64,000 nt of DNA from Thermoproteota archaeon (lineage in GTDB: Archaea; Korarchaeota; Korarchaeia; Korarchaeales; Korarchaeaceae): NCBI GenBank assembly GCA_027492205.1, contig JAOZFN010000017.1, positions 96,001 through 160,000 of the forward strand, read 5' to 3'. Made by a program: the position numbers and the translations under genes. Positions 6,804-46,073 of the stretch are shown here, in pieces (the first letter of the stretch is position 1; the number at the start of each line of letters is the position of its first letter). The notes under the pieces are model-generated. The model was given only the letters and a program-made list of their open reading frames with translations, made no database searches and had not been told where the DNA came from.

Positions 6804-7699
6804 GGCTCAACACCTCGTCATGGGCCCGCCGGATCACGAAAAATCTCTGCTGCGTGCGTCCAGAACGCGCATGGTCTCGCGTGCCCCCTGGTGGAAATCG
6901 GGTCGATAGAGATGTGGCCGAGACGCCCAATGCCTCTTCCCAGGGACGATCGACCTCGCGCTCGAAAGAGAGGAACTTAGCGGTCCTGAAGTCCCGCAGC
7001 GATCCGCCTTGGTTCGGCTCAGAGCGGCGCCGGCGCTGGCGCGGGAGGTCTGAGTCAGGGAGATCTGTCTGTGCGCGTCGACAAGGCGGCTGCTTGATTT
7101 TTGCGCCCGCGCCGCTCTGAGTCCCCCGAGGTATCCGCCGAATTCTGGGATCAAGATTGCCCGCTGTGCACGAAGGAGCCATGCGTGCTGCGAGGAGAGG
7201 TGCGGATACCGGTGCACCCAATGGTAGGGGGTCTGCGACTGCTTTGGAGACACAGACGGCGGGGAAACTCGCGTCTGCTGGAAGGGGTGTCAGAAGTACG
7301 AGTGGGCGTGCTGGCAAGACTGTAAAAGGGCGAACTTCTGCCAGAAGGTGTACCACTAACCGGTCAGATGAGGGGATGCTCTCCTAGATTGGTGCCCGCC
7401 CGAGCGCTCACCGATTGGCGTGGCGAATCGGCGTGCCCCGCAGACGCAGGGAACATCCCAGGGGGTGGAGCTAGAAGTAGGAGATAACTCGGGAAGCCCG
7501 GAAGGGTCGTCGAGTCCCCTTTTGGCACAGAGCTATTCTCATCCGTCATAAGGGGTCCCCAAGGGGCCGAAGTTGGGGACTACCTTGACCATAGAGGAGA
7601 GCGTACGGGGGACCAAGACCGGCCGCTGCGGTCGCGCTCTTCCTATTTAATCAGGGCCCACAACTCCCCCCGAGGTGATCGAGGGTTCGGGTTAAGGTA

Positions 7700-36315: not shown

Positions 36316-36945
36316 TTGGGGCTCCACGCGTTCTTCGTGTTTGACGCCTTCACTGAATTCTTCAGCGCTCTCACGGCCATCTTCGTGGCCTATTACTCGC
36401 TGAGGGCCTACAAGATCCTGGAGGACAGCCGGATGGTCGCCCTCAACCTGGGGTTCTCCGTCCTCGGCGTCGGAATGCTGGTGCACGGGGCCATCAAGGT
36501 CAGGATAGCCTTGGCCGTCCTCTCCGGCGTGCCCGTCCCGCCAGCCAGGCGGCTCCCGCTGGTTAGGCTGGGGTACACCCTGGCCTTCGCCACGGAGCTG
36601 GCAGCCTACGCCCTCATCCTGCTCGCGACAATCAAGAGGCCCCCATCAATGGAGACGACACTCCTCCCACCACTGGCGGCCCCGCTGCTGGAGTACGATT
36701 TCCGCTCTGAGGCCCTCCTAGCGGTCCTGGCCCTGCTGATCGCCGTGAAGGCGGGAATTGGCTACTCCCAGGGGGAGTCGAGGCTCGCCGGGCTGGTGTC
36801 CCTCGGATTCGCGCTGCTCTCCGCCAGCCACTTCCTCCTCGTCTTCGGAGGCCCGCTGAAGCTGATCTCCGCCGACGTCGCGAGGCTGCTCGGGTTCGCC
36901 TGCCTCCTCTGGATGGTGATCAGGGTGAGCAGGGTGGGAGCATGA
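36316..36945 (+). CDS. Multi-TM membrane protein of unknown function
   Basis: 6-7 hydrophobic segments, host-like codon use, ATGA overlap with the next gene. Confidence 0.7.
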   Translation: MGLHAFFVFDAFTEFFSALTAIFVAYYSLRAYKILEDSRMVALNLGFSVLGVGMLVHGAIKVRIALAVLSGVPVPPARRLPLVRLGYTLAFATELAAYALILLATIKRPPSMETTLLPPLAAPLLEYDFRSEALLAVLALLIAVKAGIGYSQGESRLAGLVSLGFALLSASHFLLVFGGPLKLISADVARLLGFACLLWMVIRVSRVGA

Positions 36946-37229
36946 CGGCCAGGCAGAGGTACAGGTCGAAGATGAGGATCTGCTACGACATGCTCAGGGT
37001 GATACAGGAGGAGGGGGGAGAGGCGGGCCCCACCCGGATTCTCTACGGCGCGAACCTCTCCTACGAGAGGCTCAAGAGGTACCTCGCCGAGCTGATCGAG
37101 AAGGGCCTCATTGAGGAGGTGGAGAGGGACGGAAAGAGGATATACAGGCTGACGGACAGCGGGCGGATGTTCATCGTCCACTTCAGGAAGATGACGGAGT
37201 TCGCGAAGGCCTTCGGAATGATCCTATAA
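36942..37229 (+). CDS. Winged helix-turn-helix transcriptional regulator (HTH_45-like)
   Basis: RSKMRI..DML, TRILYGANLSY..LKRYL..L, YRLTDSG. Confidence 0.88.
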   Translation: MTARQRYRSKMRICYDMLRVIQEEGGEAGPTRILYGANLSYERLKRYLAELIEKGLIEEVERDGKRIYRLTDSGRMFIVHFRKMTEFAKAFGMIL

Positions 37230-37286: not shown

Positions 37287-38056
37287 GTGCGCTGGTCCGA
37301 ACTCTCCGTGGAGGCCAGGAGTTACGTCCTGTATCAGCCCTAGCCTCGACGGTCCTGATCACGCGGTACGCGCTCCCCCTCTACCCGATGAAGGTGGGCT
37401 ACGGCGTCTTTGGAGGTCGGGGCCACATTCACGGCCGCGACCTGTTGAGCGTTCCGTTCACCGTCCTGCTGGGCAGGAGGTTCACGAGGGTCGACCCGAG
37501 GCTTGGGCTGGCCGCCATAGACCTGATGGAGGCGGTCTCCCTCGCCCTCTCCTCGATGGCGTACGGTCCGATGGCCCCCCTGCTCGTTCTGGCGGGGCAG
37601 CTGGTGGACGAGGCATCCAGCGTGCTCTATTCCCTCTATCCTGCCTACGAGAGGATCGCGTACTCGGAGGAGAGGTTCAGGAAGCCCATGCTGTGGCACA
37701 TGGCGGTTCCCGAGCTCTCGGTGGTCTTCACCTACCCGGCGCTCGGCTACGTCCTGGGGCGGGTCTGCGGTGACCCCTCCCGCCTACGACAGGCCTTCGC
37801 GGCCTTTGCGGCATACCAGCTGCTCCTGATACCCTACACCCTCCTGGCGCTCAGGCCCGTTGTCATAGAGGGTAAGAGAGATGGCCAGGGGGAGGGGAAG
37901 GGGGAGGGTTGGGGGGAGCGTGGGGATCTGTGGAGGAGGTATGGGGTCTACGTGGTCGCCGACGTCCTCTTCGTCCTGGGCTGGAGCCTGGCCCCGGGCT
38001 TGGCCACGGTCTACCTCGTTATGGAGAAGTTTGCGCGCGTGGCGGTCATAACTTGA
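37287..38056 (+). pseudogene. Truncated, frameshifted MFS-type transporter
   Basis: Hydrophobic segments spread over several frames (MRWSELSVEARSYVLY..., ..EVGATFTAA..), ends after about 7 TM. Confidence 0.5.
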
Positions 38057-38258: not shown

Positions 38259-38320
38259 GGGCGGTCGGGACTCGGCAAAGTCATCAGAGATCAGCCGGTT
38301 GATCCCTCCTCATCCCGCCC
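38259..38320 (-). ncRNA. Box C/D methylation guide sRNA
   Basis: GGGCGG-G-ATGAGGA(C)-GGGATCAACCGG-CTGA(D')-TCT-CTGATGA(C')-CTTTGCCGAGTC-CCGA(D)-CCGCCC; 6-bp terminal stem; guides complement 16S CCGGUUGAUCC and 23S ACUCGGCAAA. Confidence 0.88.
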
Positions 38321-38376
38321 AGCTGAAATGGCGGCCTGACTATTTTTCCTTATCTTGTGGGAGGTACCCCTCGGCC

Positions 38377-38898
38377 CTAACCTCCCCCGCCAGCCCCCCG
38401 GCTGATCCGCTCGGCCTCCCTGAGCGCTCGATCGTAGACGTCGGCCGTGAGCCAGAAACCGGCTCGGCTGAGGTTCCCGAGGTTTGTCCTGAACTGGGAG
38501 AGGTCGATTAGCCCGGCTTCCAGCAGATCAAGCAGGAGCCTCACCGTCCGCACGACCCTGACTCCCGCCGCCCTGGCCACGAGGTATGCCGGTCTGTCGT
38601 CCGCTAGGAGCGGGAGCCCCTTATCCAGCGCTAGAGAGATGGCCTCAGCCTCCCCCGGGTGAATATTCTCTCCGGCTGAGGGAACCGAGATCGGTTCGGC
38701 TCGCTCGACCGCCACCCCGCCAGCCTCGATCAGCGCTCTTAGGGCTTGAGCCTCCGGATGGCCCGTCTCTTCGCCCCTCACCACCACCTCGCGGTACACG
38801 GCCTCCGGAATCAGAATCCGGCCGAACAACCTCACCGCGAGGTCGATCTTCCCGAGCCTGACCAGGTATATCAGCGGGGTCGAGTTTGAGACCGCCAC
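38377..38898 (-). CDS. PIN-domain protein (DUF3368/VapC-like toxin)
   Basis: VSNSTPLIYL, IPEAVYREV, IHPGEAEAI, LADD; GTG 38898. Confidence 0.88.
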   Translation of the reverse strand: MAVSNSTPLIYLVRLGKIDLAVRLFGRILIPEAVYREVVVRGEETGHPEAQALRALIEAGGVAVERAEPISVPSAGENIHPGEAEAISLALDKGLPLLADDRPAYLVARAAGVRVVRTVRLLLDLLEAGLIDLSQFRTNLGNLSRAGFWLTADVYDRALREAERISRGAGGGG

Positions 38899-39188
38899 CC
38901 GAGATCCTCCTCCAAGTCCTCCAGGGTGTATTGGGCGGGGATCCGCCTCACCCTCAGCTCGGCTAGGAACTCGTAGAGGGTCAGACCGGCCATCTCCGCG
39001 GCCTTCCAAGCAGAGACCCTCCCCTCCGAGTAGAGTCTGATGGCCCTCTGAAGCTTCCACTGCCTCAGGCCCATCGAAATCAGCTTGCGAAGGGCCGTTG
39101 CCCTGTCGAGCTTCTCCTCCCTCTCCATCTCCTCCAGATCTTTCAGGGTGTCGTCTTCGATCCTGGTGGCCACCTGCCTCAGGGGCAC
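38871..39188 (-). CDS. UPF0175 family antitoxin-like protein
   Basis: RHH-like N-terminus, AIRLYSEGRVSAWKAAEMAGL..EF, LEEDL. Confidence 0.88.
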   Translation of the reverse strand: MPLRQVATRIEDDTLKDLEEMEREEKLDRATALRKLISMGLRQWKLQRAIRLYSEGRVSAWKAAEMAGLTLYEFLAELRVRRIPAQYTLEDLEEDLGWRSQTRPR

Positions 39189-39276
39189 GCGCGCTCGCGG
39201 GTGTGTTGATTTATAACTTTTGGGAACGACAATCTCCGGCCGACTCCGACCCTACGGTGAGTGGACCCGAGAGGAG

Positions 39277-39338
39277 GGGCGGTCGTGACTAGGCGAAGAC
39301 ATCGGCCTTCATCCCGTTGATCCCTCGTCGCACCGCCC
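39277..39338 (-). ncRNA. Diverged copy (pseudogene or paralog) of the box C/D sRNA at 38259-38320
   Basis: Ungapped 62-nt alignment, 48/62 identical by hand count; same GGGCGG/CCGCCC stem; boxes degenerate. Confidence 0.65.
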
Positions 39339-39612
39339 CCAAGAAATCTAGTGGGTCTGTTTTTGAGTTCCATTCTCCGGGCGTCTAGGGAATCTCCTTT
39401 AGCGTTCGCAGCGCAGGCGCTCCTTCAACTATTGAGCGCTCCAAACCCTCCAGCTGGATACGCACCCGCGCCCTGAAGTGGGTGTAAAGACAACCGGCTG
39501 CCGGCGATAGCGTTGGCCACCGTCGCAGTTGCCCTTCACTCAGGCCCCCGCCTGTCGGGTCCTGAGAGCAGCCCGGAATAACTCAGATTGGGGGCGTCGA
39601 TCCGATCGACTA

Positions 39613-40143
39613 ATGAGTGGGCCCCCCTACCCCCGGCGCGTGCCTAAAGAGGCTGCGGTGGCCATTGTAATCGCCGAGGTACGCGGATCTCCGTCCGTCC
39701 TCCTCGTCAGAAGGGCCAAGATGGGGGGCGATCCCTGGTCTGGAGACGTGGCGCTTCCGGGAGGGAGAAAGAAGGGCTCCGACCCAAGTCTGCTGGACAC
39801 GGCTATCAGGGAGTGCGCGGAGGAGACGGGAGTCGATCTTTCGGGGCTGAGGCCCGTGATTACTCTCGGCCCCTTCAGGTCTCAAGCGGATCCCGAGATG
39901 CTGGTGTGGGCGTTTGCCTTCACGCCCCCTGGGGCTCCGAAGGTCGCGCCCGGAGAGGAAGTTGAGGAGGCGTTCTGGGTGCCCCTTGCAGAGTTGAACG
40001 AGTCCAAGGGGGCGGCGAAGGTGAAGGGGAGGACCGTCGAGGCCTACTTATGGCGCGGGAGGGTGATATGGGGCCTGACGAAGCGGATCCTCGACCGTGC
40101 CCTCCCCCTCCTCTCCCAGCTCGGCCGTGGCAGGCCCGGCTGA
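39613..40143 (+). CDS. Nudix hydrolase, CoA pyrophosphatase-like
   Basis: AAV, DPWSGDVALPGG, TAIRECAEETG, IWGLT. Confidence 0.88.
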   Translation: MSGPPYPRRVPKEAAVAIVIAEVRGSPSVLLVRRAKMGGDPWSGDVALPGGRKKGSDPSLLDTAIRECAEETGVDLSGLRPVITLGPFRSQADPEMLVWAFAFTPPGAPKVAPGEEVEEAFWVPLAELNESKGAAKVKGRTVEAYLWRGRVIWGLTKRILDRALPLLSQLGRGRPG

Positions 40144-45474: not shown

Positions 45475-45675
45475 ATGGCCAAGACCATCCAGGTGAGGGA
45501 GAGCACTTACAGGCTGCTCGAGAGGCTCAAGAGGAGGATGAGTGCCAAGAGCTTCAACGAGGTCATAGAGAGGCTCGCCATGAGAGAGCTGGAACTGAGT
45601 GACGACATGTTCGGCGTCGACAGGGGGAGGCTGCCGCCGTTCAGGCCGGAGGACAGGGTGGAGGACAGGTGGTAG
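45475..45675 (+). CDS. vapB: VapB-type antitoxin
   Basis: MAKTIQV...TY..L..LK....SFNEVIERL; overlaps the PIN gene. Confidence 0.85.
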   Translation: MAKTIQVRESTYRLLERLKRRMSAKSFNEVIERLAMRELELSDDMFGVDRGRLPPFRPEDRVEDRW

Positions 45676-46073
45676 TCTACGACACCTACGCCTGGGTGGA
45701 GTACTTCAGGGGGACGGAGAAGGGGGCCATGGTTAGGAAACTCCTCGAGACCGAGGAGGGCCTCACACCCGCTATAGTGCTGGCGGAGCTCGCGAGGAAG
45801 TACGTCAGAGAGGGCTTCTCCGAGAGGGAGGTCAGGAGAAGGCTGGAGTTCGTCGAGGCCAAGACCGCCAGGGTCGATGTCGACGCGGATCTCGCCCTGA
45901 CGGCCGCTGAGCTGTACCTGAGGCTCCTGGAGGTGGCGAGAGAGAGGAGTCTCAGGTCGCCCAGCCTAGCAGATGCTATAGTTTACGCTTGCGCCCTCGT
46001 GAGGGGGGACATGCTGGTTACAGGAGATCGGTTGTTCAGAGACCTGGACTCCGTGGTATACATCGGAGACTGA
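45669..46073 (+). CDS. vapC: VapC PIN-domain toxin
   Basis: YDTYAWVEYF, VLAEL, SLADAIV, LVTGD..F. Confidence 0.92.
   Translation: MVVYDTYAWVEYFRGTEKGAMVRKLLETEEGLTPAIVLAELARKYVREGFSEREVRRRLEFVEAKTARVDVDADLALTAAELYLRLLEVARERSLRSPSLADAIVYACALVRGDMLVTGDRLFRDLDSVVYIGD

Follow-up and report, generated by a model that had tools for sequence, protein, structure and literature searches.

A box C/D guide RNA gene beside a UPF0175/PIN toxin–antitoxin pair in a korarchaeal genome, and the apparent use of its 3' end as an integration site

A stretch of 64,000 nucleotides (nt) from a Korarchaeales genome (Thermoproteota archaeon, assembly GCA_027492205.1, contig JAOZFN010000017.1, positions 96,001 to 160,000; hereafter the window) contains two co-oriented copies of a box C/D small RNA (sRNA) gene, one on each side of a toxin–antitoxin pair that consists of a UPF0175 gene and a PIN-domain gene. 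Copy 1, on the toxin side, has the features of a working-type archaeal dual-guide box C/D RNA gene that is conserved across the family, and copy 2, on the antitoxin side, is a decaying pseudogene in the place that the sRNA holds where the pair is absent. In related genomes, the last 16 nt of the guide gene appear to serve as the attachment site (attB) of tyrosine-recombinase elements. Taken together with an origin of the toxin–antitoxin block from such an integrated element, this is the explanation that we favor with rather more confidence than doubt. The genome that holds the window (G000, in which the window is C4:96001-160000) amounts to 1.94 Mb in 17 contigs and is 96% complete.

The two copies are identical at 48 of 62 positions over their core, and both are read from the minus strand, as are the UPF0175 and PIN genes between them. 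In a repeat search, 38259-38329 and 39277-39347 formed the sole ungapped repeat family, with a spacing of 1018 nt, so that the arrangement described in an initial annotation of the window was reproduced in full. A BLAST search of the whole 1.94-Mb genome with copy 1 returned 11 matches at E ≤ 10. The real ones are copy 1 itself (E = 8.8e-37) and copy 2 (77% over 62 nt, E = 1.4e-7), and the remaining nine are 15-21 nt long with E ≥ 0.136. Because only two real matches exist genome-wide, the 62-mer is not a dispersed repeat, a possibility that the initial annotation had raised and that can now be set aside. A 10-mer near both copies, AGTGGACCCG, was dropped as a candidate feature, as by our estimate chance alone would give about 1.5 such repeats in 1.8 kb.

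Read on the minus strand, copy 1 is closed by a 6-bp terminal stem (GGGCGG at 38320-38315 and CCGCCC at 38264-38259) and contains box C (AUGAGGA, 38313-38307), box D' (CUGA, 38294-38291), box C' (UGAUGA, 38286-38281) and box D (CCGA, 38268-38265). Two guides of 12 nt each are available for pairing, the D' guide at 38306-38295 and the D guide at 38280-38269, and both find complements in the organism's own rRNA. The D' guide pairs with the 5' end of 16S rRNA, CCGGUUGAUCCU (16S start at C16:347, minus strand), in 12/12 positions (11 Watson-Crick pairs and one G-U pair); the 16S gene is assembled only at its two ends, where this pairing was found, and further 16S targets are possible. The D guide forms ten contiguous Watson-Crick pairs with 23S rRNA positions 1840-1849 (10/12 overall), numbered from the start of the Rfam match. 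Under the five-nucleotide rule, which we take to apply here, the targets would be the first U of GGUUGAUCC in 16S rRNA and C1843 in 23S rRNA. The position of one guide target at the extreme 5' end of 16S rRNA suggests a role in pre-rRNA folding or processing besides methylation. The D' guide (38295-38306, minus strand) is conserved across the family and also occurs in G037, a genome of another family, whose D guide differs.

No match was obtained when the whole window was searched at the Rfam gathering thresholds. Below them, copy 1 gave seven matches to archaeal C/D families, the best to sR14 (22.1 bits, E = 0.0023, gathering score 38) and the six others at 10.6-15.9 bits. Since its best score stays under the gathering score, copy 1 is classed by architecture only, and it is a C/D sRNA outside any curated Rfam family. 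Homologs supplied a further test of the structure. In an alignment of 17 distinct intact sRNA homologs (A2), 88% of the terminal-stem cells are paired, three of the six stem pairs change on both sides and 0/500 shuffles reach the observed score. Position 5 of box C pairs with position 2 of box D in 17/17 homologs (G-C in 10, G-U in five and A-U in two), and position 6 of box C pairs with position 1 of box D as G-C, again in 17/17. The boxes AUGAGGA and CCGA of copy 1 also retain the GA dinucleotides needed for the tandem G-A pairs of a K-turn. The covariance model built from A2 (R1) scores copy 1 at 86.6 bits and ten complete intact matches at 79.6-89.4 bits, and it detects the sRNA in 30 of the 36 genomes of the family (18/20 of those of good quality). 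Copy 1 is identical at 62/62 positions in the sister genome G001. The TATA-like box upstream of copy 1, GGAAAAATAG, recurs before the PIN-adjacent copies in G001, G004_C159, L079, L080 and L082, a similar box precedes the NUDIX-proximal sRNA copies, and a fibrillarin gene is present in G000 (296.5 bits).

Four boxes, stem covariation, the R1 score and the rRNA pairing bear out the initial annotation, which had called copy 1 an intact-looking C/D sRNA. That both 62-mers could be no RNA genes at all, with an accidental C/D likeness, would agree with the lack of any Rfam family at gathering score in the window; the BLAST E value of 1.4e-7 between the copies, the recurrence of the sRNA in 30/36 family genomes with covarying stem and K-turn pairs, and the pairing of the guides with rRNA at 12/12 and 10/12 positions make such a coincidence extremely improbable. 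A C/D pattern scan of G000 argues in the same direction. Canonical boxes gave two loci, and a rerun with the variants AUGAGG and CCGA gave seven candidates (about five credible), compared to none in a reversed control, which indicates a small repertoire. Candidates with box C AUGAGG and box D CCGA lie at C1:35908-35956, C11:18560-18608 and C4:134265-134313, and these boxes give a Watson-Crick pair at the usual U-U position.

Inserted DNA in G001 locates the integration point at the 3' end of the guide gene. On contig C32 of this genome, the left flank is followed by the 16 nt GGGCGGTCGGGACTCG (plus strand), beyond which the sequence is foreign; contig C9 carries foreign DNA up to these same 16 nt, which there are part of a full copy 1. 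The insertion is at least 6.5 kb long (about 6 kb on C32 and 0.54 kb on C9) and lies exactly between copy 1 and the left flank of G000, whose window represents the empty site. It thereby shows the direct repeats and the empty site of a tyrosine-recombinase element. It encodes many small open reading frames (ORFs), a radical-SAM protein and a ribbon-helix-helix (RHH) protein, and at the contig end a tyrosine recombinase of which the first 140 residues are present (PF00589, E = 1e-11). In G001, the exact 14-nt core pattern is confined to the borders of the insertion. At the far border (L031, G001:C32, about 7585-7620), the 16-nt core is preceded by 13 nt, GGCGGATGGTGAG, that look like the sRNA's 5' stem and box C; this border may be a miniature C/D hairpin, or the likeness may be due to chance.

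An intact integrase was found in G021, a genome of another genus. On its contig C17, the sRNA is followed by an arm sequence, a small ORF and a 392-aa Xer-like recombinase (PF00589, E = 1.8e-30) that reads toward the sRNA and ends 345 nt from the sRNA 3' end; against the NCBIfam XerA model it scores 154 bits, below the cut-off of 220. Contig C125 of the same assembly carries the same 59 nt upstream and the same sRNA, and behind the sRNA it continues with the host gene found there in L065, L061, G023 and G024. Occupied and empty forms therefore coexist in that sample, and finding the two alleles side by side hints at integrase activity at the core. N-terminal pseudogene pieces of the same integrase (42% identity) are present in G003 and C-terminal ones (51-60%) in G004_C103. 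The integrase next to the site is thus intact in G021, partial in G001, reduced to remnants in G003 and G004, and missing from G000, where, as the initial annotation had noted, no integrase lies in the window; the single PF00589 match of G000 is on contig C1. In a PF00589 search of 29 genomes, matches stood beside the sRNA in two (G021 and G004) and, in G001, at the end of the contig with the 16-nt remnant, and 19 of those family genomes had no match on the sRNA-bearing contig; the G003 remnants were seen by tblastn only. The element is sporadic, as expected of mobile DNA.

Behind the sRNA of G001, G003, G004 and G007 stands the arm, a conserved stretch of about 100 nt with two palindromes that recurs more loosely in G021. 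An arm-plus-core pattern retrieved exactly four records from the genome collection (G001, G003, G004 and G007) and none from viral contigs. Insertion or deletion breakpoints fall within 3 nt of the sRNA 3' end in four pairs of sequences (G000/G001, G021 C17/C125, L083/G004_C103 and L079/L080). Taken together, these comparisons of sequence identify the last 16 nt of a conserved C/D guide gene as the probable attB of tyrosine-recombinase elements in the relatives. The 16-nt core and the intact G021 integrase make a defined pair amenable to bench work. Three other leads were discarded. A scan of viral contigs with the 16-nt core gave 29 matches, none in an sRNA-like context, and all look like chance; relatives of the G021 integrase in the genome collection are, apart from its own record, at most 30% identical, mostly from unrelated lineages and uninformative; and a core-like 14-mer (one mismatch) on G021 C32 was rejected as the far border of the element, as its flank differs from the host flank. 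The sRNA gene of G007 (L038, G007:C4, 7065-7124) keeps the D guide and the 3' end and is followed by the arm, and its D' guide is replaced by unrelated sequence; it may be a hybrid that arose by recombination inside the gene.

The interval between two syntenic anchors, an HTH_45 gene (syntenic in G001, G003, G004, L079, L080 and L083) and a NUDIX gene (syntenic in G001, G004_C103, L079, L082 and L083), was compared across relatives. In G000 the order is HTH_45, truncated transporter-like gene, copy 1, PIN, UPF0175, copy 2 and NUDIX. G001 has the right-hand part on contig C9, and its left flank, on C32, is joined to the last 16 nt of the sRNA only. L082 reads arm, copy 1, PIN, UPF0175, a 27-nt 3' piece of copy 2 and NUDIX, a deletion of about 65 nt having taken the TATA-like box and the 5' half of copy 2. 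In L080, HTH_45 and copy 1 are separated by 734 nt of unclassified DNA, and PIN, UPF0175, a strongly decayed copy 2 (18.5 bits) and NUDIX follow. In L079 and G004_C159, which are 97.8% identical, copy 1 lies directly against the stop codon of HTH_45; beyond copy 1, L079 retains PIN residues 100-166 as a fragment ahead of NUDIX and has lost copy 2 and UPF0175. L083 and G004_C103 (94.2% identical) have one intact sRNA each, in L083 between HTH_45 with an arm-like remnant of about 300 nt and NUDIX, and in G004_C103 after integrase fragments and the arm and before NUDIX. A synteny check for a site without the pair, proposed with the initial annotation, was therefore positive, as L083 has the same flanking genes, one intact sRNA and no toxin–antitoxin pair; the converse arrangement, both copies without the pair, is shown by no relative compared. 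L079 and L083 share HTH_45 genes that are 95.7% identical, compared to only 72% for their NUDIX genes. The transporter-like gene, which has no Pfam match, encodes 222 aa in G000 (it is truncated in G001 as well) versus 404 aa in its G003 homolog, and it is missing at the corresponding place in G004_C159, L079 and L083; its truncation marks an earlier deletion here and is probably a side effect of the loss of an element from the end of the sRNA. The idea that G004 holds two intact sRNA copies in one genome was given up as unproven, as L079 and L083 show alternative arrangements of one interval.

The boxes of copy 2 read GCGACGA (C), AUGA (D'), CGAUGUC (C') and ACGA (D), so that C-C and G-A stand in place of the two Watson-Crick pairs of the K-turn; its guides carry one and two changes, and each gains mismatches to rRNA; its TATA-like box is altered to AAAAACAG. 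R1 scores it at 45.8 bits in G000 and 44.0 in G001, and against the Rfam C/D families it gives no match at E ≤ 10. With neither K-turn-forming boxes nor target-matching guides, copy 2 falls outside the box C/D sRNAs, and the description of it as a decaying duplicate in the initial annotation holds. At the same position, the sRNA is intact in G004_C103 and L083 (83-84 bits), is down to 22.3 bits in L082 and 18.5 bits in L080, and has been lost by deletion from L079. Upstream of copy 2, the flank aligns with that of the intact sRNA in L083 and G004_C103, and the upstream flank of copy 1 aligns with that of the PIN-adjacent copies in relatives. The flank match and the intact gene in relatives that lack the pair therefore place copy 2 in the ancestral sRNA position. 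Between G000 and G001, copy 2 is identical at 59/62 positions and copy 1 at 62/62, and the neighboring spacers are 95.5% and 92.4% identical; copy 2 seems to evolve like unconstrained DNA, the numbers being small. Copy 2 thus reads as a pseudogene in the place held by the sRNA where the toxin–antitoxin pair is absent, and as one stage in the stepwise decay of a redundant guide gene across lineages (84, 46, 44, 22 and 18 bits, then deletion).

How the pair came to stand between the copies can be explained by the capture of an element. A circular element bearing its own sRNA copy would have entered the chromosomal gene, now copy 2, by a Campbell-type single crossover, made either by the integrase within the core or by homologous recombination, to give the order sRNA-element-sRNA. 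The rest of the element would then have been deleted and the toxin–antitoxin pair kept, in line with the tendency of addiction modules to persist. A second guide gene would have made the chromosomal one dispensable, and copy 2 would have decayed as a consequence of this redundancy. Copy 1 would now supply the guide function, as a small ribonucleoprotein (sRNP) with L7Ae, Nop5 and fibrillarin that directs 2'-O-methylation five nucleotides upstream of boxes D' and D, and it would be the current landing site for new elements. A single crossover with an sRNA-bearing circle would yield exactly the observed order, with copy 1 and its TATA-like box at the far end. Relative to the ancestral copy, the pair is on the 3' side, where elements insert, and it is bracketed by the two sRNA copies as repeats, with L083 as the site without the block (still with its arm-like remnant). 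Elsewhere at this side, G007 has a MazE-like/PIN pair after the arm (PIN, 54.3 bits), and the remnant in G003 includes a HEPN gene.

Several observations weigh against this reading. No integrase piece or arm lies between copy 2 and UPF0175 in G000, G001, L082 or L080; the far end of the G001 element has the 16-nt core and no full sRNA copy; no free element with the toxin–antitoxin pair and the sRNA was found in the scans of viral contigs; two intact sRNA copies in one genome are shown in none of the compared bins; and the toxin–antitoxin block, with 64.4% G+C compared to 64.7% for the window, gives no foreign signal. All the compared genomes are metagenome bins, C32 and C9 of G001 are physically unjoined and are placed next to each other by synteny with the G000 window, and the G004 bin may mix two populations. 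Because the G001 far end consists of the core only, present-day elements of this family are not enough to account for a full-length duplicate. We accordingly give even chances to the specific proposal that the block of UPF0175, PIN, promoter and copy 1 is what remains of a circular element with its own sRNA copy. The initial annotation had suggested that a small toxin–antitoxin islet entered through an sRNA gene; the decay of copy 2, the site without the pair in L083 and the integrase elements at the sRNA end bear that proposal out for the most part, and the arrival of the pair on an element is its conjectural part.

A simpler history would be a local copying of the sRNA with its promoter (about 100 nt), with a toxin–antitoxin cassette inserted between the copies or caught up with them and the integrase elements as later visitors. 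Full-length sRNA duplicates are reported for Pyrobaculum in the available text of PMC6009581, nothing of an element remains between the copies, present-day elements carry the 16-nt core only, and with 41 PIN and two UPF0175 matches in G000 a cassette near the sRNA is plausible. This history requires two events at one spot instead of the one of a Campbell-type insertion, however, and the spot is a recombination site in relatives; the similarity of the copies stops just upstream of the TATA-like box with no larger tandem repeat, and no compared relative has two copies without the pair. We regard plain duplication as a possible but distinctly less probable course of events.

The initial annotation had offered a second possibility, a functional tie between the guide RNA and the RNase toxin. 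In this case the guide would be made from the 3' end of the toxin–antitoxin transcript and methylation would be tied to toxin activity, for example through protection of rRNA sites. Copy 1 does lie on the same strand 56 nt downstream of the toxin stop codon, an arrangement kept in G001, L080 and L082, and it also stands beside PIN fragments in L079 and G004_C159. Outside the genus, no homolog of the pair occurs within about 7 kb of the sRNA at 11 loci (E ≤ 1e-8), and none was found in L061, L065 and L075 at E ≤ 1e-3. The pair is missing from L083, where the sRNA is intact, and in L079 the sRNA persists next to a toxin gene that is broken. Copy 1 is preceded by a TATA-like box of its own, and four paralogous PIN loci, searched for the flanking sRNAs that the initial annotation had envisaged at other toxin loci, have no R1 match. 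A VapBC pair near the sRNA in G007 could be counted for coupling, although it belongs to another family and lies on the opposite side of the sRNA. Finally, downstream of a broken RHH/PIN pair, at G000:C9:251785-251839 (minus strand), stands another C/D sRNA candidate that has a TATA-like box to itself; the pair's open frame ends about 210 nt away, and a PIN-domain match that contains a stop codon is about 300 nt away. We read this case as both kinds of gene collecting in variable spots, and it is the one observation that keeps coupling alive. Because G000 has 41 PF01850 and two UPF0175 matches, some sRNA/PIN adjacency is expected by chance, and on balance we see no support for a functional tie and consider it very improbable.

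The pair itself has nothing unusual in its make-up compared to type II UPF0175/DUF3368-type PIN and VapBC pairs, with which it shares two small overlapping genes, the antitoxin first, and Pfam matches. The UPF0175 protein (38871-39188) matches PF03683 at 60.1 bits (E = 1.7e-16), and the PIN protein matches PF20698 at 41.8 bits (cut-off 27.8) and DUF3368 at 25.4 bits, slightly short of its cut-off (27.3). The PIN gene is taken from a GTG at 38898, and its open frame continues to 39060; the two genes overlap by 28 nt, and gene layout and family matches fit a type II pair. A search of the Protein Data Bank (PDB) with the PIN protein sequence gave no related solved structure, and NCBIfam gave nothing for it and a chance-level match for the antitoxin (17.3 bits, cut-off 193.2). 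Identity of the PIN protein is 98% with G001 and 76-87% with L080 and L082. The toxin–antitoxin genes of G000 and G001 share 96.9% identity, compared to only 90.3% for the neighboring NUDIX gene, and in L079, L082 and L083 too no gene of the interval changes faster than NUDIX. The TATA-like box AAGTTATAAA upstream of the antitoxin is conserved in L082 by alignment. Coordinates of these and the other features are collected in Table 1.

Table 1 Features of the sRNA and toxin–antitoxin locus (window coordinates).
Feature	Coordinates	Strand	Description	Basis
HTH_45 gene	36942-37229	plus	left anchor of variable interval	PF14947, 69.9 bits
Truncated transporter-like gene	37388-38056	plus	222 aa; 3' side of copy 1	
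Copy 1, box C/D sRNA	38259-38320	minus	62 nt	sequence, family model R1, covariation and rRNA pairing
Putative attachment core	38259-38274	minus	last 16 nt of sRNA (end of D guide, box D and 3' stem); unoccupied in window	comparison with G001
TATA-like box GGAAAAATAG	38340-38349	minus	20-29 nt upstream of copy 1; presumed promoter	
PIN-domain toxin gene (DUF3368-type)	38377-38898	minus	173 aa	Pfam matches
UPF0175 antitoxin gene	38871-39188	minus	105 aa	PF03683
TATA-like box AAGTTATAAA	39210-39219	minus	22-31 nt upstream of antitoxin start codon; presumed promoter	
Copy 2, sRNA pseudogene	39277-39338	minus	NUDIX-proximal (ancestral) position	
NUDIX hydrolase gene	39571-40143	plus	right anchor of variable interval	PF00293, 65.5 bits

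That tRNA and tmRNA genes serve as integration sites for mobile DNA is textbook knowledge. For tyrosine integrases, islands and proviruses in such genes are treated in the Islander work (PMC4383910) and in a review of archaeal tyrosine recombinases (PMC8371274), both as far as their text was available. The elements seen here in relatives resemble those described there in having a tyrosine recombinase gene beside the site, an insertion at the 3' end of a small stable-RNA gene, a regenerated gene with a displaced 16-nt end copy at the far border (G001), and both empty and occupied sites. They differ in their target, a box C/D methylation-guide gene, and the G000 window differs further in having a full-length gene copy as its repeat and no remaining integrase. 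The available text of PMC8371274 places most sites in tRNA genes and does not mention sRNA, snoRNA or non-coding RNA. A small RNA gene other than a tRNA gene does serve as attB in the case of ffs, the 4.5S RNA gene, which holds an Enterococcus phage attachment site according to the accessible part of PMC12540744; that case is bacterial and involves another RNA class and a phage. In a thaumarchaeal survey (PMC6563490, available text), 68 integrated elements divide into 39 tRNA, 15 intergenic and 14 protein-gene sites.

As an RNA, copy 1 resembles the Pyrobaculum families, as far as PMC6009581 was available, and Rfam sR14 (RF01145) in its boxes C, D', C' and D, its 12-nt guides, its terminal stem and its complementarity to rRNA. 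It departs from them in box C AUGAGG and box D CCGA, which form a Watson-Crick pair in place of U-U, and in directing one guide to 16S and the other to 23S rRNA, and from sR14 also in score (22.1 versus the gathering 38). The same partial text of PMC6009581 reports full-length sRNA duplicates and MITE-like sRNA copies in Pyrobaculum; there as here, C/D sRNA genes duplicate and move and redundant guides drift, but here the duplicate brackets a toxin–antitoxin pair and the gene end serves integrase-bearing elements. Neither 'integrat' nor 'toxin' occurs in that text. A review of archaeal C/D box sRNA conservation (PMC7994747), in its available part, covers methylation hot spots and chaperone roles. 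A box C/D guide gene as an integrase attachment site in archaea was not found described in the full-text literature as far as accessible, which for PMC6009581 and PMC6563490 comprises the articles without their supplements, and a word search of the available texts of PMC6009581, PMC8371274, PMC7994747 and PMC6563490 likewise gave no such site.

We propose tentatively, as the less probable side of the question, that archaeal elements use a C/D guide gene as an attachment site and that some carry a working guide copy together with an addiction module. If this is true, such genes would be a new class of attachment sites, relevant to the archaeal mobile-element and small-RNA fields; rRNA-modification guides would spread and be replaced horizontally with mobile elements; and C/D sRNA gene duplication, turnover and mobility would have a concrete mechanism. 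Part of the archaeal 'intergenic' attachment sites, for example some of the 15 among 68 in thaumarchaea, could then be unannotated C/D sRNA genes. PIN domains are unusually abundant in the genome, with 36 of the 41 PF01850 matches of G000 above the cut-off, and one of the 41 is a further PIN gene in the window at 45675-46049 (plus strand, PF01850, 61.6 bits).

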